Below are positions 2,518-60,598 of a DNA stretch of 64,000 bases, in pieces. The stretch covers positions 11,074 through 75,073 of the forward strand of contig JBEGVQ010000109.1 of NCBI GenBank assembly GCA_041178345.1. Direction: 5' to 3'. Positions within the stretch are counted from its first letter, which is position 1. Every line of letters begins with the position of its first letter. Source of the DNA: Acidobacteriota bacterium (GTDB taxonomy: Bacteria > Acidobacteriota > Vicinamibacteria > Vicinamibacterales > UBA2999). The notes under the pieces were generated by a model, which saw only the letters and a program-made list of their open reading frames with translations, was not told the origin of the DNA and searched no databases. Position numbers and translations under genes: made by a program.

Positions 2518-3918
2518 TTAGTGGGCGACGACGATGTTGCGCCACTTGCCCTGCCGGAATCGCATGACCGTCAGCACGCAGCGGGTGAAGTGGCCCAGGA
2601 CGATCGCGAGCCAGATGTCGCCGGCCTGCAGCGGACGGGTCGCCTGGATCAGCGTGCACATGCCGATCGGCACCGCCACCTGCGAGGCCAGCGTGATGAA
2701 CAGCGGGCTGCGGGTGTCGCCGGTGCCCTGCAGGCCGCCGGTGTAGGTCAGCGCGAGCGTGATGAAGAAGCCCGACACGGCGAGGTACTGGAGCAGTTGC
2801 TGGCCAAGTGCCGCCACCGCCGGTTCGGTGGCGCCGAAGGCGCCGAGCAGGACCTGGGGAATCGTCACGAACAGGATCCCGACGAACGCGGCCACGGCCA
2901 GGCCGATCCGCGAGGCCGCGTGCACACCCAGCATGGCGCGCTCGGGGTGGCCGGCGCCGAGGTTCTGCCCGGCAATCGTCGCGGCGGCGCCCATCAGGCC
3001 CACCGAGGTCCACGTGATCATCGAAAACAGCTCGGTGTAGCCGATCGTGAATGCGGCCTGGGCCGCCGCGCTCTGCGGCAGCGAGCCGATGTAGCGCAGC
3101 ATCAACACGCCGGCGACGTTCATAGCAATGCCCTGCACGCCGGTGGGCAGCCCGAAACGAAACAGCGAGCGGATGATGGTCCAGTCGGGACGCCAGTCCA
3201 TGTGGCGCGACACCCGGAACACCAGCCGGCCCTTGAACAGCTGGTAGAGCGCAAACGCGCTGACCGAACTCGAGGCGATGGCGGTGCCGAGCGCGGAGCC
3301 GGCGGTGCCGAGCGCGGGGATCGGGCCGAGTCCCGGGATCAGGATCAGGTTGAAGATGACGTTCAACACCGTCATGGTCACGCCGAGCCGAAGCGGCGTC
3401 CTGGTGTCGCCGGCCGCGCGCAGCGCCGAGGTCAGCATGAAGAACGACAGCATGCCGAAGCTCAGGGCGAAGTTGATGCGGAGGAACGGCAACGCCAGCG
3501 CCCTGACCTCGCCCGAGGCGTTGACCATCTCCAGCAGGTACGGCGCCGCGAAGTACCCGACCGGCCCCATCACCGCGTACATGGCGATGGCCGTCAGCAG
3601 CGCCTGCTGGACGGTCTTGTTGACCCGGTCGACGTCGCCGGCACCGACGAAACGCGCCACCAGCACGGCCTGGCCGGTGAACAGCGAGGCAATAAAGACG
3701 ATCACGACCAGGAAGATCTGCCAGCTGACCCCGATGGCGGCGTTGCCGGCATAGCCAATCAGGTGGCCCACCAGGATGTGATCGACGACGCCCTGCAGGC
3801 CGGCGATCACGTTTTGGAGCATGGTCGGCCACGCCAGCTTCCAAACGGCGGGACCAATGGGGCCTTCGACGAGCGACCGATCGAACGGCGACTTCTTCTG
3901 CTGAATCGGGTCAGACAT
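2518..3918 (-). CDS. MATE family efflux transporter
   Basis: Polytopic membrane ORF with a typical MATE N-terminus ([35 protein letters not shown]). Preferred start is the ATG at 3918 (MSDPIQQKK), which overlaps the parE-like stop by 8 nt. The ORF is open up to 3975. Confidence 0.85.
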
Positions 3919-8241: not shown

Positions 8242-11200
8242 TTAGAAGATGTGCCCAATCCCGAAGTACCAACGGCCTCCGCTGAGGCTGTTGGGCTTCC
8301 GGGTCGAGGTGGTCGGGAATTCCGAGGCGGGAATACCGAAATCCACGCGCAGCATCCCGACCGGCGTCGAGAAGCGAAGTCCCCCGCCGTAGCCGATCTT
8401 CAGGGCGCTCCAGCTGAACGCCTGGTCGATCCCCAGCAGGTCTCCCGCATCGACAAAACCCACGCCGTTGATCCATCGATAGATCGGAAAGCGCACTTCC
8501 TGGTTCAGCACCAGCAGCGTTTCGCCGCCGAGCGGCAGGCCAAAGAAGTCGCGCGGACCCAGGCTGCCTTCGCCGTAGCCGCGCACGCTGGTCGCACCGC
8601 CGGCGTTGAAGCGGGCGCTCGGCAACAGCGGGTCGGGCCCAAACTTCTTGCCCCACTGGAGGCGCGATGCCAAGACGACGCGGCCGAGGGGTGCGAACGC
8701 GTACTGCTGCACCAGCAGCTTGCGATTGCTGACGTCGGAACCGAGCCACGACGCCGCATGATCGAGCGATGCCGACGAGAACGTGCCCCTGACCGGCGCC
8801 AGCGGATCATCGCGGCGGTCCCACAGCGCGGCGCTGCTGAGCGAGGCGAGGTTGCTGACAAAGTCGAGCGGCACCACGTCGTTGCCGGGCTCAGGGTCGT
8901 AGGTCCGCGATCGCTCGAAGCGGTAGCCGTAGACCACCTGCAGGCCGCGCGGCCGCCAGCGCTGGTCGGCGCTGAAGCCCTGGACGTCGTTGATCGCGAC
9001 GATCTCCTGCCCGCCATCGTCGCGAATGTGATCGCGCGAGTAGAACCCGTACAGACTGGACCGGGCGCGCCAGCCGAACAGCCGTGACGTCGCCAGGAAC
9101 AGCGTCGCGTCCTGGCGATCGTACTGATACATGCCGAACGCGCCGAAGGTGAGGGCGCGGCCGAACAGGTTCGGGTTCTTCAGCTCGGCCACCACGCCGG
9201 CATTGCGGGTGCTCGTGAACTCATCCAGCTCGAGTTCGCGGTTGCCTTCCAGCTGAAGGCCGTAGCGGAACGTCCACTGGGGGTACTCCTGCACCACCAC
9301 CACGGCCTTCACCGGCTGGACGCCATCGACCGCCTCGCCAACCGGCACGGCCTGGACGTCCACGAGCCGGAACACGTTGGTGTCGTACAGGCGCTTGCGC
9401 GCCACCGACCACTCGTCGAGATCCACCGGCTGGCCCAACTCGAAGCGCAGCGCGCCGGTGAGCACGTCGCCGCGCGTGATCTCGAGACCGCTCGTCTCGA
9501 CCTCCTGCAGCACCTGCTGCGGCCCCTCCGTGATCGCGAACGTGAGGCGGACGGTGTCGTCGCCCGCCACTTCCGGCAGCACTTCGACGTCGGCCGCATT
9601 GAAGCCGTCTCGCCGGTACTGCTCCTCCACCCGGACGCGGGCGGCGCTGACCTCGGTGGCCACGTACGGCGCGGGGGTCGGCATGACAGCCACCTTCTGG
9701 ATGGCCGCGAGGCGGCGCTCGGGCACGCCCTCGAACTGGACACTCGTCACTTGCGTCTGCGGACCTTCGACAATGGTGATGGGCAGGACGCCGGTGTCGC
9801 CGTCGATGGTCAACGGGCCGCCCGTCACCCGGGCCTTGAGATACCCGGCCTCGTGGTAGGCGCTGACCAGCAGTTCCTCAACCGGCGTGCGGTTGAGCCA
9901 CGCATCCACGTCCAGCCCCTGCGCGACGATCGCGTCGAGCAGCCGGTCCCCAGCGAGCGCCTGCTGACCGGTGACCCGAATCTCGCGGCTGCTGACCCGC
10001 ACGCCCTCGGTCACCTCGATCGTCAGCCGCTTGGTGTCGGGCAGCGACCGATCGACCGTGCCCACCACGACGCTGCCGAGCTCGTTGGTGCCGACCAGGT
10101 AGCGGCGAACCCGGTGCGTGAGATCGTCGATCAGGAACTGGTCGAACGCGTTGCGGTGCCAGGCCTCCTCGAGTTCAGCGGTGAGGCTCGCCGGCAGCGT
10201 CGTGCCAACGATGGCGAGTTCCGTGCGGGGGCCGCGATCGACCGTGTACTCGACCGTCACGGTGCCTGACCCCGGCACCTCGACGCGGCGGGTCCGTACG
10301 CGCGCCTCGAAATATCCCTGGGCCTTGAAGCGATCGCGCACCCGGTCGACATCGCGCTGCAGCACCAGAAAATCAAAATCGTCGCCGGGGCCGAGGGCGA
10401 TCTCGGCGCGCACCTCCCGCTCGATGGCGGGCTCGACGCCGGCAAACGCGATCGCCGCGACCGTGGGCTTCACGCGCAGTTCCGCGGGCTTGCGCCCGAC
10501 GCCGCCGCCAAACGTCACCTGGTGCCGAATGCCGAGGCTCGCCGTGTCGTCGTCACGCGACAACGCGCGAATCTCGATCGTCGGCGTGACGTAGTAGCTG
10601 ATGACGAAGGTGGTGTTGCCGCTCTCGCGCAAGTTCTGCGACACCGTGAACTCGACCTGCCGGCTCAACCGCTTCGACAGCGTCAAGCGCGTGGTCGGGT
10701 CGGTGCGGTCGTTGCCGACGAGCGACGGGTCGTCGCGGAAGTCGGGATCCTCGAAGTCGCCGCGTTCGACGCGGAAGGTGTCGAGGCCGATAGCTCGCCC
10801 GGTCACGCCCAGCAGGTCGGCCGACAGGAGCGTGAGCGCCGTGCCGGTATTGGTCTGGCCCAGTAGTTGTGCCGCCAGCTCGCCCGGCGTGCTCGACCCG
10901 TCTTCCGAGGTGAGGTCGATCGACGGTCGTTCCAGCGTGCCGGTCAAGGTGAGGGTCGCCGTGTCGCCACCGCCAAGCGGCGCCTCGGCGACGATATTGA
11001 ACTCGGGCCGGATGCGGCGGAGATCGGTGAACGAGATGTCGCCGCGGGTCAGGCGGAAAGTGCGGCCGGCCAGGAAGATCTCGCCACCTTCGCGCAACGT
11101 GATCCGTCCGTCCATGCCGGGCGCCGCCGCGGTGCCGGTGACGCGAACGTTGACGGCCGCGCCGAGCCGGCCATAGTTATTGTCGACGGTCAGGTCGTCG

Positions 11201-14200
11201 CTGGTCGTGACGTTCAGGTTCAGCCGGACGCGATCGAGGTACGGCTGTTGTGGCGTGGGCGAGACCGGCAGGGTGGCGCGGCGGGCCAGCGCGGTGAGGG
11301 TGATGGTGTCGGTATAGGCGCTTTGCAGCACCCGGATATCGCCGGTCACGATCGGCCCTTTCGGATCGGGGCGAAACGTGATCAGCGCGTCGACCTCGCT
11401 GCGGAGTCCGGCAATCAGCTCAATCGGCACGCCCTGGGCCTGGATGTTGACGGCGCCGTCGAGCGCGTCGACGCCCGATCCCTGCAGCGATCCGTCCAGG
11501 CTGAGCGTGCCACCATTGGCGAGACCGCGAATGCCGTCGAGCACCACCCGCTGGCCGTCGAGCAGGATCAAGCCGTTGAGGCCGGAGAGCACCAGGCGTG
11601 GTTCCGCGATCGCGACCTCCGCGTCCCGCAGGCCCACCTCGCCGTTGAACAGCGGGCGCGACACGGTGCCGCCAATCACGGTGTTGAGGTTGGCGTTGCC
11701 GTCGAACGCCAGCGTGCTGACGAAAGCCGACAGCACGCGCAGGTCAACCAGGCCCTGGACCGACAGGTCGAGCGGCGGGTCCTCGGCGGCAAAGCCCACT
11801 GACCCGTCAATCACCAGCGGGTTGTGCGCCACCGACCACGAGATATCGGCCACCGCCAGCGTGCCGCGCGCGAACTCGACCCGCGAGGGCCGCTGCTGCT
11901 CGACCGGGATGCCGGAGAACGTGAACTTGGCGGCATCGACGGTGAGCTCTCCGGCGACGGCGGTGAGTGCGAGGACCGGGACCTCGGCCCGGGCGGTAGC
12001 GGCGAAGCTGCCCACCACGCCGCCGCTGGCGACATCGCCGGAGAGCCGTGACACGGTCAGCGCCTCGCCCTGCAGCACGGCCTCGACGTTCAGGTTCGTG
12101 ACCGCTTGCGGGCCACCGCCCCAGTTGAAGGTGCCGGCCTTGAGCGACAGGGTCGCGAGCGTGCCGGCGCGGCTGCCGTTTGACCGGAGGTCCAGCGACA
12201 GCGGGCCCGAGCCGTCGAAGGTGACCGGCACGCCGACCGCCCGGCCCATGCGGATGGCGTCCTGGAACTCGCCGCTGAACTGTCCCTGGAACGCACCGTC
12301 GAGTTTCGTGTTCCACTCGCCCGCTGCCGTCAACCGGCCCGCGCCGATGCGGACATCGAGGTCCGTCAGCGTCACCTCGTCGCCGCGCCACACCACGCTG
12401 GCCGGCGCGTTCACGCTCACGGGCACGCCGCCAATGCCGGCGTCGAGTTCGGTGAGGTTGACAATGGCCAGGCGGTCGCGGGCGTCGGCGAGCCGGCCCG
12501 AGGCGGTCACGCTGCCGCTGGCAAAGCCGAGGATCTCGGACGAGACGGCGTCGAGAAACGGCGACAACCGCGCCAGCTCCAGGCGGTCGAGCCCGGCGGT
12601 CGCGCGATAGTCGTAGGGCGAGGCGGTGGCGATGTCGGCGGTGACGAGCGCGCCGACCGACGGCAAGCGGACGACGACCCGCGCCTGGTCGCCCATTAGA
12701 TCCGCGGTCAGGTCGCCGGCGCCGATCACCGTGCCGGCCTTGCCGCCGGTGAGCGAGAAGTCGACGCGGGCCTGGCCGCCTGGGCGCGCCGTGGTCCCGG
12801 TGCCGTCGAACTGCATCGAGAACATGGCTTGCGTGTCGTTGGGTGCCAGTACGCTCCCCTGCCAGGTCAGCCGATCGCCCTTGAGGTTGGCGGCATAGGC
12901 GCCCGTTTCCCAGGCGTAGCGCACGCGGCCGTCGAGGAAGCCGGCGCCCTGGCGCAGTTCGAGCGACGTGACGTCGATGTCGGCGGCCGTCACCATCGCC
13001 TTGGCAGTGGCGCTCGCGAGCGGCTGACCGGCCCAGGTCAGCGTCGTCCCGGTGATCGTGGTGTCGAGCGTGTAGTCGTCGAACGTGCCGCCCAGCAGGG
13101 CGGTGGCGCGCATCGGCCCGACGACCCGCCACGCCTCGGGCACGTCGGCCTGGAGTTCCTCGACGCGCGGCGCGTCGACGGTGAAACTCCCGCGCCACGT
13201 CTCGCCGGTGATGTCGGCAACGGCCTGGCCCCTGATCGTCGCCGTGCCGCGGCGGACGTCGATGCCCCTGATGTCGGCGCGGCGCGTGTCGGCGACCACG
13301 TGCGCGGCGGCTTGCACGCGCCCCAGCAGGGGCACCTCGACCGCGTCGCCGGTCACCTGCGTCTCGACCTGCGGCAGCTGGTAGGAACCTGCCAGGGTCA
13401 TGGGCACGTCAATCGCGCCATGAACGTCGGCGGCGATCTCGGGAACGGGAAAGCCCAGCGTCGCCAGGCCTTGCGCCGCCGTGGCCACGTCGCTCACCCG
13501 CGCATGCGCGGGGCCGGTCATGGTGGACAGCAACGCGGACTCGCGGTCGATGCGGCCCGCCATGCGGCCCTCGATCGCGGCACCCGGCAACGTGTGATTG
13601 TGATCGAAGCGGTAGTCGTCGCCGACGATCGTCGCCCGGAGGGTGCCGGACATGGGCACGTGGTTGCGCGTGGCGCGGCCGGTCGCGCGGTTGGTGATCT
13701 CGAAGCGGCGCGGCTCGCCGAACTCGAAGGTGCCGCTGCCGTCGAAGCCGGCGGCAATGGCCCGGGGGGTGACGTCGGCCAGGTCGAGCGCGGTTTGCGC
13801 GTCGAGCGCCCGCCACGACGCGGTGGCCTTGCTGATCGCGGTGCCGCCCCAGGGCACGTTGAAGTCGGCGCGAATCTCGCCACCCGAGCGCGGCGTGATG
13901 GCCAGCGCGGTGCCCGAGAACGATTCGAAGGTGACCAGCACGGGGCCCGACAGCGTGAGCTGGCGTGCGCGGCCGACGGCCAGCGTGGTGCTTGACGCGC
14001 GCAGCGTCGTGACGACGTCGCTGGGCGGTCCGGTGACGGTGCCGTCGATGGTGACCAGGCCGCCGACCGGCACGGGCGGCGGCGGGACCCAGGTCGTGGC
14101 GTGCTCGAGATCGACGGTGCCCTCGAGGGTGAGGGCGAGGCGTGGCGAATCCAGCACGCGGTGGATCGTGCCGCTCAAGAAGGCGTTCAGTTCCGGCGAG

Positions 14201-14865
14201 ACCAGCCGGGCGTCGGCCAACGTCAGGTCGGAACCATCGAAGGTCATGACGGTATCGAACGGGGCCATGGTCAAGATGCGCTCGCGCAGCCGCACGGCGA
14301 GCGGACCGCGCACGGCGAACGCGCCCTCGGCGCCGAGCGCGCCGCTCGTGAGCGCCGACTCGATCTGCGGAATCTTGACGCCCCAGTCGCGGACCATGTC
14401 GGCGTACTGCACGTCGAGGCCGCGCAGCGTCAGGCCGCGAAGGTCGAGGCGACGCGGTGTGTCCGGCGTGGGTTGTCCGGAACCCGGCGGCAAGTTGGTC
14501 ACGCCGTTCTCGTCGCGAACGATGTCGACAATGGCGTGGTCGACGCGCAGGTGATCGATGGCGAAGCGGCCGCGGAACACCATCCACGGCAGCGTGACCT
14601 CGACGCGCTGGGCGACCAGGAACGGCCGGTCGTCGTGCCCTTCGGCCGCGAGGCGCACGTCGGTGAGCGTAATGCGGCGGGTCAGCGCGTTGTAGCTCAG
14701 GTCGTTCGCGCGGAGCACCAGGTCATGGCGCGAGACGAAATCGCCGGCCCACGCCAGGGCGCGGGTGCGGGCCCATGGGGTGTGAATGAGCAGCAGGGCG
14801 GCCACAATGACCACGGCGGCGATTGCCGCCGGTACGACCAGCCCCCGCCGCACCCAAACTCTCAC
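8242..14865 (-). CDS. TamB/AsmA-like translocation-and-assembly protein fused to a POTRA + Omp85 (BamA/TamA family) outer-membrane beta-barrel
   Basis: Uninterrupted 2207-codon ORF with a GTG start. N-terminal anchor VVPAAIAAVVIVAALLLI. A long beta-rich repetitive region ends in a DUF490-like block (RLTLSKRLSRQVEFTVSQNL...VISYYVTPTIEIRALSRDDDTASLGIRHQVTFGG). POTRA-like repeats follow (VAAIAFAGVEP..., VSSREIRVTGQQAL..., VTSVQFEGVPERR..., LQEVETSGLEITRGDV...). The Omp85 barrel ends GGLRFSTPVGMLRVDFGIP...RWYFGIGHIF. Confidence 0.85.
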   Translation of the reverse strand: MRVWVRRGLVVPAAIAAVVIVAALLLIHTPWARTRALAWAGDFVSRHDLVLRANDLSYNALTRRITLTDVRLAAEGHDDRPFLVAQRVEVTLPWMVFRGRFAIDHLRVDHAIVDIVRDENGVTNLPPGSGQPTPDTPRRLDLRGLTLRGLDVQYADMVRDWGVKIPQIESALTSGALGAEGAFAVRGPLAVRLRERILTMAPFDTVMTFDGSDLTLADARLVSPELNAFLSGTIHRVLDSPRLALTLEGTVDLEHATTWVPPPPVPVGGLVTIDGTVTGPPSDVVTTLRASSTTLAVGRARQLTLSGPVLVTFESFSGTALAITPRSGGEIRADFNVPWGGTAISKATASWRALDAQTALDLADVTPRAIAAGFDGSGTFEFGEPRRFEITNRATGRATRNHVPMSGTLRATIVGDDYRFDHNHTLPGAAIEGRMAGRIDRESALLSTMTGPAHARVSDVATAAQGLATLGFPVPEIAADVHGAIDVPMTLAGSYQLPQVETQVTGDAVEVPLLGRVQAAAHVVADTRRADIRGIDVRRGTATIRGQAVADITGETWRGSFTVDAPRVEELQADVPEAWRVVGPMRATALLGGTFDDYTLDTTITGTTLTWAGQPLASATAKAMVTAADIDVTSLELRQGAGFLDGRVRYAWETGAYAANLKGDRLTWQGSVLAPNDTQAMFSMQFDGTGTTARPGGQARVDFSLTGGKAGTVIGAGDLTADLMGDQARVVVRLPSVGALVTADIATASPYDYRATAGLDRLELARLSPFLDAVSSEILGFASGSVTASGRLADARDRLAIVNLTELDAGIGGVPVSVNAPASVVWRGDEVTLTDLDVRIGAGRLTAAGEWNTKLDGAFQGQFSGEFQDAIRMGRAVGVPVTFDGSGPLSLDLRSNGSRAGTLATLSLKAGTFNWGGGPQAVTNLNVEAVLQGEALTVSRLSGDVASGGVVGSFAATARAEVPVLALTAVAGELTVDAAKFTFSGIPVEQQRPSRVEFARGTLAVADISWSVAHNPLVIDGSVGFAAEDPPLDLSVQGLVDLRVLSAFVSTLAFDGNANLNTVIGGTVSRPLFNGEVGLRDAEVAIAEPRLVLSGLNGLILLDGQRVVLDGIRGLANGGTLSLDGSLQGSGVDALDGAVNIQAQGVPIELIAGLRSEVDALITFRPDPKGPIVTGDIRVLQSAYTDTITLTALARRATLPVSPTPQQPYLDRVRLNLNVTTSDDLTVDNNYGRLGAAVNVRVTGTAAAPGMDGRITLREGGEIFLAGRTFRLTRGDISFTDLRRIRPEFNIVAEAPLGGGDTATLTLTGTLERPSIDLTSEDGSSTPGELAAQLLGQTNTGTALTLLSADLLGVTGRAIGLDTFRVERGDFEDPDFRDDPSLVGNDRTDPTTRLTLSKRLSRQVEFTVSQNLRESGNTTFVISYYVTPTIEIRALSRDDDTASLGIRHQVTFGGGVGRKPAELRVKPTVAAIAFAGVEPAIEREVRAEIALGPGDDFDFLVLQRDVDRVRDRFKAQGYFEARVRTRRVEVPGSGTVTVEYTVDRGPRTELAIVGTTLPASLTAELEEAWHRNAFDQFLIDDLTHRVRRYLVGTNELGSVVVGTVDRSLPDTKRLTIEVTEGVRVSSREIRVTGQQALAGDRLLDAIVAQGLDVDAWLNRTPVEELLVSAYHEAGYLKARVTGGPLTIDGDTGVLPITIVEGPQTQVTSVQFEGVPERRLAAIQKVAVMPTPAPYVATEVSAARVRVEEQYRRDGFNAADVEVLPEVAGDDTVRLTFAITEGPQQVLQEVETSGLEITRGDVLTGALRFELGQPVDLDEWSVARKRLYDTNVFRLVDVQAVPVGEAVDGVQPVKAVVVVQEYPQWTFRYGLQLEGNRELELDEFTSTRNAGVVAELKNPNLFGRALTFGAFGMYQYDRQDATLFLATSRLFGWRARSSLYGFYSRDHIRDDGGQEIVAINDVQGFSADQRWRPRGLQVVYGYRFERSRTYDPEPGNDVVPLDFVSNLASLSSAALWDRRDDPLAPVRGTFSSASLDHAASWLGSDVSNRKLLVQQYAFAPLGRVVLASRLQWGKKFGPDPLLPSARFNAGGATSVRGYGEGSLGPRDFFGLPLGGETLLVLNQEVRFPIYRWINGVGFVDAGDLLGIDQAFSWSALKIGYGGGLRFSTPVGMLRVDFGIPASEFPTTSTRKPNSLSGGRWYFGIGHIF
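8245..9288 (-). other. Omp85/surface-antigen beta-barrel portion of the fusion ORF (about residues 1861-2207)
   Basis: Alternating-hydrophobic strands, SVRGYGEGSLGP motif and C-terminal aromatic residue (IF). Confidence 0.7.
9289..10500 (-). other. POTRA-repeat portion of the fusion ORF (about residues 1456-1860)
   Basis: About 400 aa of repeated beta-alpha-alpha-beta-beta-like units between the DUF490-like block and the barrel. Boundaries approximate. Confidence 0.55.
10501..14865 (-). other. TamB/AsmA-like portion of the fusion ORF (about residues 1-1455)
   Basis: Boundary placed by counting residues back from the C-terminus to the end of the DUF490-like block. Approximate to about 20 codons. 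Confidence 0.6.
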
Positions 14866-14919
14866 AGTTCGATTCTAGTCCTGCAATTGAGGTACCATTC
14901 GCCGGTGGAGGATCAGCTC

Positions 14920-15468
14920 ATGCGTATGAAGTCATGGCTCACGGTCGGCCTCGGCGCCGCCCTGAGTCTGGTGACGAGCGCGGCGGGCATGGCCCAGGCA
15001 CCAGCGGCATTGAAGGTTGGTGACATGGCCCCCGCGTTCTCGGCGCCCGGATCGGATGGTAAGACCCACACGCTGGCCGAGTCGAAAGGCAAGCAGGCGG
15101 TGGTACTCGCGTGGTTCCCGAAAGCCTTTACCGGTGGTTGAACGGCCGAATGCAAGTCGCTCCGTGAGAGCGGCGATCTCATCCGGCAGTACAACGTCGC
15201 GTATTACATGATCAGCACGGACACGATTGAGGACAACACCAAGTTCGCGCAGATGCACGAGGCGGACTATCCCATCCTCAGCGATGTGACCAAGCAGATT
15301 GGCACCAATTACGGCGTTCTCGGTGTCACGGGCATGGCGCGGCGGTGGACGTTCTACATCGACCCGGACGGCAAGATCCTCCACATCGACACCGCCGTGA
15401 AAGCGGCGTCGGCGGGTCCCGACATGGTGGCGAAACTCGGCGAACTGAAGATCGCAAAGCGTAAGTAG
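14920..15468 (+). CDS. Secreted Bcp/PrxQ-type peroxiredoxin with an in-frame TGA (15139-15141) at the peroxidatic-Cys position; candidate selenoprotein (alternatively a nonsense pseudogene)
   Basis: ATG at 14920 follows GGTGGAGGA. Signal peptide MRMKSWLTVGLGAALSLVTSAAGMAQA. The frame is continuous from 14920 to 15468 except for one TGA. Translation reads ...VVLAWFPKAFTGG[TGA]TAECKSLRES...YPILSDVTKQIGTNYGV...ARRWTFYIDPDGKI. So the universal Prx motif PxxxTxxC reads PKAFTGG-U with a resolving-type Cys 4 residues later. Confidence 0.6.
15145..15187 (+). promoter_or_regulatory. SECIS-like extended hairpin starting 4 nt after the in-frame TGA
   Basis: Upper stem GTCGCTC (15156-15162) pairs with GAGCGGC (15168-15174): 7 bp including one G-U, with loop CGUGA containing GU. 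Lower pairs are ATG (15150-15152) with CAT (15080+100 i.e. 15180-15182), and GCCG (15145-15148) with CGGC (15184-15187). Paired by eye only. Confidence 0.4.
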
Positions 15469-15501
15469 AATCCGGCTTCAGCCGTAATAACTAAACCACG
15501 A

Positions 15502-15537
15502 CCGACCTGGCCCGCAGCAACGGCGCGGCCAGGTCGG
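15502..15537 (+). terminator. Hairpin downstream of the peroxiredoxin gene (11-bp perfect stem CCGACCTGGCC/GGCCAGGTCGG, 14-nt loop)
   Basis: Read directly from the sequence, 34 nt after the stop at 15468. No U-tract. Confidence 0.4.
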
Positions 15538-15684
15538 CCTCTCCCGCCACCGTGACGCGCCGTCCGAGCACCGTTCCCGCCAGCGCGTAATCGAACCTCC
15601 GCCACCCATCATCGGCCGCGATCGTGACCAGCAGGTCGGGCGCCGCCGGGCCATGCTATTCGGGGCGGGCTGTCGCCAAAGGTC

Positions 15685-57296: not shown

Positions 57297-60200
57297 GGGA
57301 TCTTCCTCAGCGCGTCGAGGTCGGCGAACAACTTCGCATCCTTGCGACGGGTGCGCTGCTCTTCGCCGCGCCCGCACACCACCTTGAAATCACACCACTT
57401 GCAGGCCTCGTGGGCAGGGCGGGCCGCGAGCGCGCCATTTTCGATCGCGCGATCGACGATCTCGAGCACTTCGAGGCCCCGCTTCGGCGCATCACCCATC
57501 AGCGGGATCTCGTACGGCTGGAACCCGCCGGCGGTGGTGCAGAAGAACAGCCGGCCCGAGAACACGGTTTCTTCCGGAAAGAGCGCCGTCAGCGCGAGGC
57601 CATAGATCACCGGCTGCAGCACGCGGCCGCCATCGACGACGGTCTGGCCGGATTTCGTGCGGTTCTTGCCGGTCTTGTGATCGGTGACGCGTAGGAAGCC
57701 GGTGTTGCGATGACGCTCGATCATGTCCATCGAGCCGCGCAACTTGAAGCGGCCGTCGACGAGCGCGGGCTCGGCCACGCTATGCGGGTCGCGTCCGTCC
57801 ATGTCGGGCAGGCCGAAGCTGAATTCGAACCGCTCCGGCGTCCAGTCCGCGCCCTCGTCCGCCAGCTTCTCGAGCCAGGTCTGGAGGTCGGCCGTCATCA
57901 AGCCGATCTCGTCGCGCCAGACGCGATCAATGGCGGGGTTGAGCCGGTCCTTCTCGCGATCGTGCACTTCCCGAATCGCCGTCGCCAGGTGCTCTTGCGC
58001 GGCCGGCAGGTTACCGGCCGACAGCGGCAACAGGCCCTCGGCCTGCAGCCGGCGAAGCGCCGCGGCCTGCATCTGGTGAAACAGGTCGCCTCGCGTCAGC
58101 GGATCCATCTTCTGCAGCGGCGCGGGCGCGTCGAGCGGGGCCAGGCGATAGACCGCGGCCATCAGGAACTGGTAGGGACAGGCGGAGTATCGCTGCAGCG
58201 CGGTCAGCGAGTACGGGCGCGCGCCCAGCCGTTGCGACGACAGGGCATCGCGAGTCGTCTCGGCCGATCGGACAATTCCGTCGGCGGGCTCCCACTGCTT
58301 GCGGTGATGCCGTAGCCATCGCGAGGTCAGCGACCGCTGCAGTTCCGGGCTGAGCTCGTAGAGATACCGGGCGCGGCCCTTCGCGGCGGCCGACTTGGTG
58401 CCGAGCAGCGCGGCCAGCGTCGACAGGTCGTGCTCGAAGTCGTCGATCGCGGTTGTGGGGTCCACCGGCGCGGGACGAGCCAGGGCCGAACCACCGGCCT
58501 GCAGCGCCCGCGCGGCGATGATCTGCGCCGGCGGAATATGGCCTTCGATCGCGCGCGCGATGTCGAGCACGTAGAACGACGGCACGCGCGGGCGCGACTC
58601 GTTCAACTCGATTCGCGGGAACGACACGTACAGCCGCTCGGCCGCGGCGCCGGCCGCCAGCGACAGCTGCAGGCGCTCGTCGGCCGCCCGGCGCGCCTGC
58701 GTGGCGAGCGCCGCATCGGCGGCTTCCCGCCGGCGATCGGGCAACAGCGAATCCTCGCGAATCCGCTGGGGGAACATCCGCTCCGCCAGCCCGGGTACGA
58801 ACACGACCTTGAACGAGCGGCCGCGGGCGGCGCTCGGCGTGCCCACAAACACGCGGCCGTGCCGGCGGCGCGGCGGCTCGTGGGTCAGCGACGACAGGCG
58901 CGGCGTGAGGACGTCGCGGACTTCTCGCAGGCTGACCGGGCCGATCGCCGACAGGGGCGCCAGCTCGCGCAGCACCCGGACCACGCGCTCGGGTTTCGCG
59001 AGCACCCGCGGCGCCAGCCGCTCGATGGCGGACAGCCAGTCGCCCCAGGTCTGCGCGGTTTGCCACTCGGCCATCTCGGCGAGAATCGGCTCCGCGAACG
59101 ACCGCAGAGCGCGCAACTGCTCGCGGTCGCGGACGAGCGCGCGCACGCGCGAAGCCTCGGGATCCTCGGAGCTGGCTTCGCGGACCCGGCGGTCGTACTC
59201 GTGCTCGAGCCCGGCGAGGCGCCGCTGCCAGCGATCGAACTTGCCGATCACCGCCGCTTCGACGATCAGGTCTTCCCACCGCCACGGCGCGCGCAGCGTG
59301 CCGGCCAGGTCGTAGGTGGACTCGCCGCGCGCGACCTGCGCGCGCGCCTCTTCGTCTGGCTGGGTATCTTCGGCCAGGTCGGCGGGTGGCAGCAGCGCTT
59401 CGACCAGTTCGTCGGCCGGCGGCGACCACTGGTCGGCATTGCCGGCATCCGTGAGCGGCACCTGGCCGAGCGAGACGTACTCGGCAAACCGGCGCGCCGA
59501 CAGTTCCTCGTCCGCGCACGCCAGCAGGGCGAGCATGGCGCGGCCGGCCGGATCGGGCCGCCGCGTGCCGCGGTGAAACCAGGCGGGAATGCCGGCGCGA
59601 TCGAGCGCGTGCTCGAGCACGCTCAGATAGGTACCCGGCGCGCGCAGCAGGATCGCCATCTCGTCGAACGCGATGCCGCGCGCGGCCTCCTGCAACAGGC
59701 GCCGGGCAATCTCGATCGATTCGCGTCCCTCGCCGGGCGCCGAGAACAGGATCACCGAGTCGTCTTCCTGGCCGGCCGGCGGAGTCTCGTCGGCGAACAG
59801 GTGGCGCTGCAAGCGCTGCAGGGCGCGGTCGCCTTGCAGGGGCGCCAACGAATCAATGCCGAGTTCATCCAGTGTTCGGCGATCGCCAGACGGCGCGGTG
59901 ACGATCACACTCTTCGCTGCGCCAATCACCGCCCTGACGAACACCGCCTCGGCTTGGGAGTGAATCGCGACATCGAGCAACACCACCGTTTTGCCTGAGA
60001 GCAACTCTCGGTGCGCGACGAGCTCCGCAGTGGCTGTCTCCAGCATCGTGGCGTAATCGATCGCGCCGGCCTTGCCGCGCTCCTCAATCGCCCGTTCGAG
60101 CAGTTGGGACAGGTCGTCGTTGGCCGGGTGGCCAGTCAACCGATCCGCATCAAGTCCAGCCATGCGCAACTCGCCGAGTGTCCGGCTGAGCGCACGTGGG

Positions 60201-60598
60201 AATCCAGGCATGTGGGCCACCGGCGCGAAGTAGCCGAGGTGCTGGCCTGTTAGCAGATCATCCGTGACCCGGGCGGCCACCGCTTCGTCACTGAGCGGAG
60301 CGCTCGGGGTGAGACCCCGTCGCGCCAGGGCCGGAACGGCCAGCTTCGCGACGAGCTCGGTCAGGCCGACCCGCGTGATGCCGAAGGTCGCCCCGCGCTC
60401 GGCCGCCAGCGCCAGCGCAAACTCGTCGGCTGCGCCCCGGCTGGCGCCGACGATCAGGATGGGCGGCGTGGCGGCATCGAGGCTCGCCCGCGCCTGGGCA
60501 ATCCGGGTCGCGCTTGAGGGCGAAACGATGGAGAGAATGGATTCGGACAAGAGGGACCCGGAAGCACGTCGAGGATACAACGCCGGGGACAGTTCCAC
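57293..60598 (-). CDS. addB: AddB-type subunit (degenerate helicase-like N-terminus, C-terminal RecB-family nuclease with Fe-S cysteines)
   Basis: N-terminal ILIVGASRGAADE (non-canonical P-loop). Nuclease GSMDMIERH...LRVTDHKTGK. Cys pattern YSACPYQF ... ACKWCDFKVVC (C, then CxxCx5C). GTG start. Confidence 0.8.
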   Translation of the reverse strand: MELSPALYPRRASGSLLSESILSIVSPSSATRIAQARASLDAATPPILIVGASRGAADEFALALAAERGATFGITRVGLTELVAKLAVPALARRGLTPSAPLSDEAVAARVTDDLLTGQHLGYFAPVAHMPGFPRALSRTLGELRMAGLDADRLTGHPANDDLSQLLERAIEERGKAGAIDYATMLETATAELVAHRELLSGKTVVLLDVAIHSQAEAVFVRAVIGAAKSVIVTAPSGDRRTLDELGIDSLAPLQGDRALQRLQRHLFADETPPAGQEDDSVILFSAPGEGRESIEIARRLLQEAARGIAFDEMAILLRAPGTYLSVLEHALDRAGIPAWFHRGTRRPDPAGRAMLALLACADEELSARRFAEYVSLGQVPLTDAGNADQWSPPADELVEALLPPADLAEDTQPDEEARAQVARGESTYDLAGTLRAPWRWEDLIVEAAVIGKFDRWQRRLAGLEHEYDRRVREASSEDPEASRVRALVRDREQLRALRSFAEPILAEMAEWQTAQTWGDWLSAIERLAPRVLAKPERVVRVLRELAPLSAIGPVSLREVRDVLTPRLSSLTHEPPRRRHGRVFVGTPSAARGRSFKVVFVPGLAERMFPQRIREDSLLPDRRREAADAALATQARRAADERLQLSLAAGAAAERLYVSFPRIELNESRPRVPSFYVLDIARAIEGHIPPAQIIAARALQAGGSALARPAPVDPTTAIDDFEHDLSTLAALLGTKSAAAKGRARYLYELSPELQRSLTSRWLRHHRKQWEPADGIVRSAETTRDALSSQRLGARPYSLTALQRYSACPYQFLMAAVYRLAPLDAPAPLQKMDPLTRGDLFHQMQAAALRRLQAEGLLPLSAGNLPAAQEHLATAIREVHDREKDRLNPAIDRVWRDEIGLMTADLQTWLEKLADEGADWTPERFEFSFGLPDMDGRDPHSVAEPALVDGRFKLRGSMDMIERHRNTGFLRVTDHKTGKNRTKSGQTVVDGGRVLQPVIYGLALTALFPEETVFSGRLFFCTTAGGFQPYEIPLMGDAPKRGLEVLEIVDRAIENGALAARPAHEACKWCDFKVVCGRGEEQRTRRKDAKLFADLDALRKIP

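Follow-up and report, generated by a model that had tools for sequence, protein, structure and literature searches.

A peroxiredoxin gene of Vicinamibacterales with a TGA codon at the peroxidatic position is very probably a selenoprotein gene

Can a gene that stops at its own catalytic codon encode a working enzyme? This question is raised by a peroxiredoxin (Prx) gene in 64,000 nucleotides of DNA from an Acidobacteriota bacterium of the order Vicinamibacterales (assembly GCA_041178345.1, contig JBEGVQ010000109.1, positions 11,074 to 75,073; this whole stretch is called the window below). The gene occupies 14920–15468 of the forward strand. From ATG 14920 to the stop codon TAG at 15466–15468 it forms one frame of 183 codons for a selenocysteine (Sec)-containing precursor of 182 residues, and its sole internal stop is a TGA at 15139–15141, within the peptide WFPKAFTGG*TAECKSLRE. 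A preliminary description of the window had reported a frame open except for this TGA, a stop in place of the cysteine of the PxxxTxxC motif, and a gene that annotation would split. We recovered the same frame and the same flanking peptide. When the stop was read as Cys, the product matched Pfam AhpC-TSA over model positions 1–123 of 124 (E=1.1e-28), and the TGA stands at the peroxidatic residue (Cp) within this full-length domain. The split is also real, as public collections hold the gene as two exact fragments with products of 73 and 86 amino acids. The active-site motif P67-K-A-F-T71-G-G-U74 (PxxxTxxU, U being Sec) lies at 15118–15141, with the codons of P67 and T71 starting at 15118 and 15130; W65, P67, T71 and G73 are invariant among homologues. 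C78, the likely resolving cysteine, follows one helical turn past Sec74 (TGC, 15151–15153), and it is encoded by TGC in 71/71 Sec forms. The codon of the conserved catalytic R142 is found at 15343–15345, and R142-W-T-F-Y is invariant in family alignments. Neither fragment holds the complete Prx fold: T71 and U74 are in one and R142 is in the other. The locus encodes one protein, not two fragments.

We determined which codon the relatives of this gene carry at the Sec position. One genome per species was scanned, which gave 80 loci, nearly all in metagenome-assembled genomes (MAGs) of Vicinamibacterales and other Acidobacteriota. The codon was TGA in 68 of these loci and TGC in 12; an in-frame stop at this position was always TGA, never TAA or TAG. 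Together with the window and two JGI contigs this makes 71 TGA copies. The TGC copies number 16, since two paralogs (in loci L030 and L051) and two genes fetched later (L083 and L084) were added to the 12. The 87 related copies come mostly from Vicinamibacterales and Acidobacteriota MAGs, and the TGA copies span 54–95% amino-acid identity. Thus, the TGA is not strain-specific; it is conserved across the clade and alternates with Cys, a point that the preliminary description had left to be checked. In 71/71 TGA copies the frame past the TGA runs for 105–123 codons to a conserved C-terminus. The ratio of nonsynonymous to synonymous substitution rates (dN/dS) downstream of the TGA is 0.28, with dS saturated at about 1.1. 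This indicates that the part after the "stop" is under purifying selection at the protein level. In L030 and L051 (both at about 9330–9900) the Cys-type paralog, with the motif TQGC, lies directly upstream of a Sec-type gene, so that both forms occur in tandem.

The codons next to the UGA, at 15133–15144 in the window, are skewed for a genome of 68% G+C. The two preceding Gly codons are GGT in 58/71 and 54/71 copies, and the Thr codon directly 3' of the UGA is ACG in 67/71. Such a bias may reflect an influence of codon context on how efficiently the UGA is recoded.

Bacterial Sec insertion sequence (SECIS) elements are stem-loops, and the published bacterial SECIS (bSECIS) consensus has a loop of 3–9 nt, a stem of 4–16 bp and a minimum free energy (MFE) of -7.5 kcal/mol or lower; a G is in loop position 1–2, followed by G or U, and the distance from UGA to loop is 16–37 nt (PMC13188914). 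Downstream of the TGA we found a hairpin at 15156–15174, the SECIS core, which begins 14 nt past the UGA. Its 5' arm GUCGCUC (15156–15162) and its 3' arm GAGCGGC (15168–15174) form a 7-bp stem that encloses the pentaloop CGUGA (15163–15167). The loop thus has 5 nt and begins C-G-[U/G]; the UGA-to-loop distance is 21 nt (15142–15162), with no length variation in 71 copies. The 24-nt core has a mean MFE of -11.0 kcal/mol in Sec forms, and the window's own hairpin also gives -11.0; the range is -12.4 to -7.2, so that at least one copy just misses the -7.5 cutoff. The bacterial SECIS geometry proposed earlier is therefore borne out for 15156–15174. This stem with its pentaloop is the only consensus helix that RNAalifold finds in the 60 nt after the UGA, and it is paired in 99.8% of alignment cells (60 distinct sequences). 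Its rare changes are one compensatory double change from G-C to A-U (L067) and one change from U-A to U-G (L053). The loop consensus is C-G-[U/G]-G-[A/C], where C25, G26 and G28 are invariant and position 27 is only U or G in Sec forms.

The same nucleotides also encode protein, and this allowed us to compare synonymous variation inside and outside the hairpin. It collapses over codons +4 to +11 (TGC AAG TCG CTC CGT GAG AGC GGC) and is normal again from +12. TCG is found in 71/71 copies, CTC in 71/71, AGC in 70/70 and GGC in 69/71. Pairwise dS is 0.07 in the eight hairpin codons, as compared with 1.12 upstream and 1.10 downstream. Upstream of the TGA synonymous variation is normal, with 1.0–1.5 bits at the codons of invariant Val, Leu, Ala and Pro. 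The hairpin 15156–15174 is thus selected at the RNA level. The earlier description had drawn a longer hairpin of 43 nt (15145–15187). Only its apical 19 nt, the 7-bp stem and the pentaloop, are conserved. We rejected its lower stem (15145–15151/15181–15187) as a conserved feature: it was not recovered by RNAalifold, it is paired in 79.5% of cells, with rare double changes at three pairs, and the window itself has a mismatch there. It is a weakly supported and optional extension. An Rfam scan of the window gave no match, neither to a curated SECIS family nor to a tRNA-Sec family.

If the hairpin serves the TGA, it should accompany TGA forms and fade in Cys forms. It turned out that the mean folding energy of this region is -6.1 kcal/mol in TGC forms, as compared with -11.0 in TGA forms. 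Typical Cys homologues encode KSLAENG instead of KSLRESG, and in them the hairpin is absent or weak. Two Cys sequences, P0042 (L083) and P0109 (L084), have Sec forms as their nearest relatives, and the L083 gene occupies the same genomic position, beside the giant TamB-Omp85 gene described below. Both carry relics of the hairpin with changes that are absent from all 71 Sec forms: in L083 the loop CGU has become CGC, and in L084 GAG has become GAA, which breaks the closing pair. Judging by the sequences, the decaying hairpins would fit relaxation after a recent switch from Sec to Cys. We used only nearest-neighbour relations here; the midpoint-rooted neighbour-joining tree left the monophyly of the Sec forms unsettled. 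We also searched metagenome contigs for the exact 19-mer of the hairpin. A TGA was located exactly 17 nt upstream in 91 of 120 contigs. At least 89 of these 91 are in Prx genes, divergent ones among them (FSAG*TAQC, ATPG*RAEC), and the other two matches are too close to the contig end to be read. Among the remaining contigs, one has TGC in a Prx gene, and 28 are scattered in other contexts with no TGA at that distance. Thus, a conserved structure does accompany the TGA. As for co-variation of the hairpin in homologues, which the preliminary description had wished to see, the structure is conserved and tied to the TGA, with only one true covariation event.

Environmental reads served to verify the TGA and to assess transcription of the gene. 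Four independent studies of freshwater and drinking water gave contigs over 14850–15550, with no difference at 15139–15141. In eight metatranscriptome runs, RNA contigs cross the UGA unchanged, and their depth before and after it is similar. In the metatranscriptomes the depth of the flanking genes is 0–5, far below that of the Prx gene, which appears to be well expressed. RNA contigs start at 14912–14917 in 6/8 runs and none starts further upstream; an adapter junction is at 14913 in one contig. This places the mapped mRNA 5' ends and a short leader at 14912–14919. Ends of RNA contigs are approximate, so the true mRNA start is possibly a few nucleotides further upstream. The 3' ends lie at 15411–15660, most of them at 15475–15619, and one run shows an adapter junction at 15556. 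The discrete RNA contigs, from about 14912 to 15500–15600, indicate a short monocistronic mRNA that is transcribed in situ. Transcription across the UGA is consistent with translation through it and does not prove it.

The leader may have only about 7 nt before ATG 14920. The only Shine-Dalgarno-like sequence, GGAGGA (14907–14912), is at or just outside the mapped 5' ends, and a sigma-70 promoter scan found nothing relevant upstream of the gene. After the stop codon, a G+C-rich inverted repeat at 15500–15539 is the probable 3' end or terminator, as suggested by its fold and by the RNA contig ends; no U-tract follows, and it was not called by a simple intrinsic-terminator scan. At about 15130–15188 the assembly unitigs break in all the metagenomes and metatranscriptomes examined; word depth jumps 2- to 8-fold there, and the loose unitig ends run into other Prx homologues. 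The breaks and depth spikes are due to the invariant stretch common to co-occurring relatives and are an independent sign of extreme conservation. The invariant SECIS stretch thus acts like a shared repeat and fragments assemblies.

Taken together, these data make us confident that the locus is a true selenoprotein gene for a Sec peroxiredoxin. Its claimed standing as a Sec-decoded gene and not a pseudogene is supported by the clade-wide TGA, the open frame with its low dN/dS and the TGA-coupled hairpin. It is very probably a real and expressed gene for an exported peroxide-detoxifying enzyme with a catalytic selenocysteine at the in-frame TGA. We infer that Sec, and not another residue, is inserted, and that the insertion depends on SelB. 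Several observations weigh against this. The depth of RNA contigs says little about translation. Because the hairpin hardly varies, with just that one true covariation event, its support comes from suppressed synonymous change. The fold of the window's 43-nt hairpin (-21.1 kcal/mol) is no better than that of shuffled sequences (z=-1.0; 30/200 fold as well), and for one G+C-rich sequence such a fold alone is not evidence. A tblastn search with E. coli SelA, SelB and SelD as queries found no selA, selB or selD, either in the window or across the fetched loci (about 1.9 Mb); the SelA query was validated by a match of 43% identity. Using ARAGORN, we found no tRNA-Sec in the window or in any of the fetched loci. 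There was no second selenoprotein gene in the sampled DNA: a scan of 1.3 Mb for an in-frame TGA with a SECIS-like hairpin and coding signal on both sides, which detects 54/71 of the known genes, returned the Prx genes and 14 unconvincing sites and nothing else. It is known that Acidobacteria include Sec-users (PMC1794560; PMC12013277); our literature searches gave nothing specific to Vicinamibacterales.

Some candidates from these searches were rejected. A match to the Sec-gene queries in L015 is CysN/CysC, and the SelD match in L051 is an AIR-synthase-like protein without the SelD N-terminal motif; neither is a Sec gene. A further SelD match, similarly weak, is present in L086. Same-frame junctions of open reading frames (ORFs) in the window, considered as selenoprotein candidates, are ordinary gene ends. 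The one real SelA is in L190 (selA at 929–2497), beside a chance copy of the 19-mer (3588–3606). A database search assigned it to Chloroflexota (Tepidiformaceae/Dehalococcoidia), so it is uninformative on the Vicinamibacterales lineage. This 19-nt copy falls within a nucleotidyltransferase-like ORF and is not preceded by a TGA; selA and a Rex-like gene are found 1.1 kb upstream of it. The copy is probably a coincidence.

The alternative that survives best is that the UGA is recoded with the help of the hairpin by a non-canonical route. A tRNA-Sec-like opal suppressor (a selC* tRNA-Cys with UCA anticodon, together with a SelB paralog) or an acidobacterial allo-tRNA would then insert Cys or Ser. 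Such components exist: selC* tRNA-Cys with a UCA anticodon and selB* are known in Deltaproteobacteria, and Acidobacteria have allo-tRNAs that are possible nonsense suppressors (PMC5389517). Canonical Sec genes were not seen in the window and fetched loci, and Cys at this position would give an active enzyme, to judge by the 16 homologues with TGC. Yet a Cys product could be obtained from TGC without the cost of recoding, and nevertheless TGA and the hairpin are kept in 68 species-level genomes. Moreover, selC* systems were reported in anaerobes with the full Sec apparatus and not in Acidobacteria (PMC5389517), and no tRNA of the selC* or allo type was found in the window or the fetched loci. 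We therefore consider insertion of Cys or Ser in this way improbable. The same low probability applies to the broader version, in which the UGA and hairpin of Vicinamibacterales are decoded by an allo-tRNA or tRNA-Sec-like (UCA) route with Cys or Ser inserted, or by a divergent SelB. Under such a route, the nucleotide-invariant hairpin would be the recognition element of an uncharacterised recoding system. What the evidence shows is selection for recoding; the tRNA, the factor and the amino acid are not fixed by it.

A pseudogene or a true terminator would leave a secreted peptide of 73 residues, perhaps with a separate product of 86 residues from ATG 15208, and public gene calls are exactly these two fragments. 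This is very unlikely. The same codon is fixed as TGA in 71 copies that differ widely in sequence, the frame past it is undisrupted and under selection in a pattern impossible for a pseudogene or a true terminator, and neither fragment holds the complete fold. In addition, the stop is never TAA or TAG, and an RNA structure is selected just downstream of it. The homologue data effectively refute this explanation.

Still less credible is that the UGA is read as a standard amino acid, by a variant code (code 4, Trp, or code 25, Gly) or by leaky read-through independent of a SECIS. What speaks for it is the "W" at this position in 13 of the best 120 database matches (Cys in 95); the closest database proteins, with 59–76% identity to the query, are full-length and have W at the catalytic position. 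We checked the DNA of two of the W matches, L001 and L002, and in both it reads TGA. Therefore, the W is an artefact of short contigs translated with genetic code 4. The JGI/IMG calls with Trp at the Sec position are L001 79–642 and L002 858–1406, and the proteins with the false "W" are P0001–P0006, P0008, P0010, P0023, P0027, P0041, P0071 and P0076. Moreover, 12 of 26 confident genes in the window end in TGA, more than in any other ordinary stop, which excludes genome-wide reassignment of UGA. An enzyme with Trp or Gly at the peroxidatic position would be dead, and this does not fit with the invariance of the catalytic Thr and Arg; leaky read-through, for its part, leaves the nucleotide-invariant hairpin unexplained. 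Finally, the idea that TGC or TGT was misread or misassembled as TGA has nothing but its prior possibility in its favour and is already refuted, its chance being negligible, because the TGA is unchanged in the contigs of four independent studies and in eight RNA runs, and the same TGA is present in seventy other genomes and contigs.

What kind of peroxiredoxin would the selenoprotein be? By sequence, the nearest solved structure is Bcp1 (3drn, E=2e-18), followed by 5epf and 2ywn; the TGA aligns with the Cp of 5epf, with that of 2ywn and with the Ser that 3drn has at this position. The structure was modelled with AlphaFold2 on the natural Cys ortholog P0042. The model (pLDDT 88.6) is a compact peroxiredoxin with Cp at the start of helix 72–83 and C78 one turn later in this helix. 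A Foldseek search with it gave Bcp1 3drn, AhpE 1xxu/4x1u, BcpB 5epf and PrxQ 3ixr as nearly equal matches (TM 0.84–0.90). Bcp1 3drn is at the top by both sequence and fold, and AhpE 1xxu/4x1u scores almost equally with a higher identity (34%). No NCBIfam equivalog was passed by the Prx product. The best match, PRK09437 (Bcp), gave 76 bits against a cutoff of 140, the Deinococcus-type PrxQ model 65 against 260, the PrxU model NF040737 (peroxi_PrxU) 48 against 270, and the ResA-like WAxxUGC model a negligible 21 against 300. The second Cys is at Cp+4 (U74-x-x-x-C78) and not at the canonical Cp+5 of BCP/PrxQ (CxxxxC); Cys homologues are also CxxxC, and C78 aligns one residue before the resolving Cys of 5epf. 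The claim of a second Cys four residues past the stop is thus correct, with a spacing that differs from BCP/PrxQ. Similarly, the downstream half does complete a fold, with a full-length AhpC-TSA domain and Bcp-type best matches, and the assignment to Bcp/PrxQ is not carried by the curated models. Because the equivalogs failed and the spacing is UxxxC, we call the protein a BCP/PrxQ-AhpE-like peroxiredoxin and assign it to neither subfamily.

The first 27 residues (MRMKSWLTVGLGAALSLVTSAAGMAQA, encoded at 14920–15000) are predicted to be a Sec-type, that is, secretory, signal peptide with cleavage after A-Q-A. Its n-region is basic, its h-region is hydrophobic and its c-region has the AxA site; neither a twin-Arg nor a lipobox Cys is present. 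The Prx domain begins at residue 32–33, so MRMKSWLTVGLGAALSLVTSAAGMAQA is outside it, and the corresponding N-terminal part of the ortholog model lacks structure (pLDDT <50). From these features we infer export of the product to the periplasm, and from the position of C78 a redox couple of Sec74 and Cys78.

The proposed mechanism is as follows. The UGA at 15139–15141 would be recoded during translation. The loop CGUGA would present a G followed by U/G, as is typical of bacterial SECIS elements. By bringing SelB-GTP-Sec-tRNA(Sec) to the ribosome, the hairpin would cause insertion of Sec instead of termination. After removal of the signal peptide, the mature enzyme would be a compact periplasmic protein of the BCP/PrxQ-AhpE type with about 155 residues. 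Sec74, activated by Thr71 and Arg142, may attack the peroxide and become a selenenic acid. Cys78 would resolve this acid to an intramolecular selenenylsulfide, and a periplasmic thiol-disulfide reductant would presumably regenerate the enzyme.

Sec-peroxiredoxins with the TxxU motif (PF00578) are an established bacterial selenoprotein family that has been shown experimentally (PMC1794560; PMC13188914). PrxU, the prototype, comes from Eubacterium acidaminophilum (PMC1794560; PMC13188914, citing Sohling et al. 2001), and members are also found in Deltaproteobacteria, Clostridia and others (PMC1794560; PMC13188914). In 2006 the family was listed among 25 selenoprotein families, with several independent conversions from Cys to Sec (PMC1794560). 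The window gene shares with PrxU-type proteins the AhpC/TSA fold, a UGA exactly at the peroxidatic Cys of PxxxTxxC, Cys homologues with repeated Sec/Cys switches, and a SECIS hairpin 3' of the UGA inside the coding sequence. However, it is not an ortholog of PrxU, as its score against the PrxU model shows. PrxU belongs to the AhpC/Prx1 type and is a cytoplasmic enzyme of strict anaerobes, whereas the window protein is compact and BCP/PrxQ-AhpE-like, with a signal peptide and a U-x-x-x-C pair, and its family is found in MAGs of Vicinamibacterales that come from metagenomes of freshwater, drinking water and soil.

By sequence as well as by fold, the window protein is matched best by BCP/PrxQ proteins (E. 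coli Bcp, Xanthomonas/Xylella PrxQ, Sulfolobus Bcp1 3drn and M. tuberculosis BcpB 5epf) and M. tuberculosis AhpE 1xxu. They are similar to the window protein in size, in the Thr/Cp/Arg triad and in the position of Cp at the start of helix alpha-2. In contrast, they are Cys-containing and cytoplasmic, and canonical PrxQ has its second Cys one residue further from Cp. Prx-like thiol:disulfide oxidoreductase selenoproteins (UxxC/UxxU, PF00578) also combine a thioredoxin fold with Sec paired to a nearby Cys, but theirs is a CxxC-type motif, and they do not have PxxxTxxU and the catalytic Arg. The hairpin resembles the E. coli fdhF-type SECIS and the bSECIS model in being a stem-loop inside the ORF that must also encode protein, in a loop that begins 21 nt after the UGA here, and in the conserved loop G followed by U/G. 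Unlike the fdhF type, it is a simple 7-bp stem with a pentaloop, has no conserved bulged U and matches no Rfam family; its binding of SelB is putative. Thus, the window gene has every defining feature of Sec-peroxiredoxins that we examined and is of an established kind of selenoprotein. Particular to it are the Vicinamibacterales lineage, the signal peptide, the UxxxC pair and the order-wide nucleotide invariance of the SECIS.

This means that a widespread and well-expressed antioxidant enzyme of an order common in freshwater and soil is systematically misannotated. Gene callers cut the gene into the 73- and 86-residue products, IMG-type pipelines give Trp by switching short contigs to code 4, and no NCBIfam model captures this Prx family. 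The 19-nt hairpin, together with the TGA 17 nt ahead of it, offers a marker, both simple and specific, by which such genes can be found and mended. If our interpretation is true, Sec decoding is maintained across many freshwater, drinking-water and soil species of Vicinamibacterales, at least for an exported peroxidase. The Sec forms, the recent Sec-to-Cys revertants with a decaying SECIS and the old Cys paralogs make a clean natural series for the study of SECIS constraint and decay. The current understanding of selenoproteins remains unchanged, and the finding would not surprise a specialist.

The surroundings of the gene deserve a few remarks. Divergent from the Prx gene, at 8242–14865 of the reverse strand, one protein of 2207 residues is encoded, with DUF748, TamB and POTRA regions and an Omp85 barrel at its C-terminus. 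Here TamB is fused with a TamA/BamA-like barrel in one polypeptide; normally TamA and TamB exist as separate proteins. This giant TamB-Omp85 gene adjoins the Prx gene on its upstream side in at least 37 related loci, and likewise in L083. An exact look-up of the downstream protein of 975 amino acids found no record. Several MAG records with homologous Prx genes are titled Acidimicrobiia or Bifidobacteriaceae (L009, L011, L014, L015, L017, L021, L022 and L030). Their genes are 70–90% identical to those of Vicinamibacterales MAGs, and all these records except L011 also share the adjoining TamB-Omp85 gene; the taxonomic labels look unreliable. Elsewhere in the window, at 57695–60517 of the forward strand, a same-frame run from stop to stop has an odd composition by codon position, unlike other genes (G+C of 0.76–0.88 at the first position and only 0.72–0.77 at the third). 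Probably the choice of frame or strand is wrong there, or the region is atypical.

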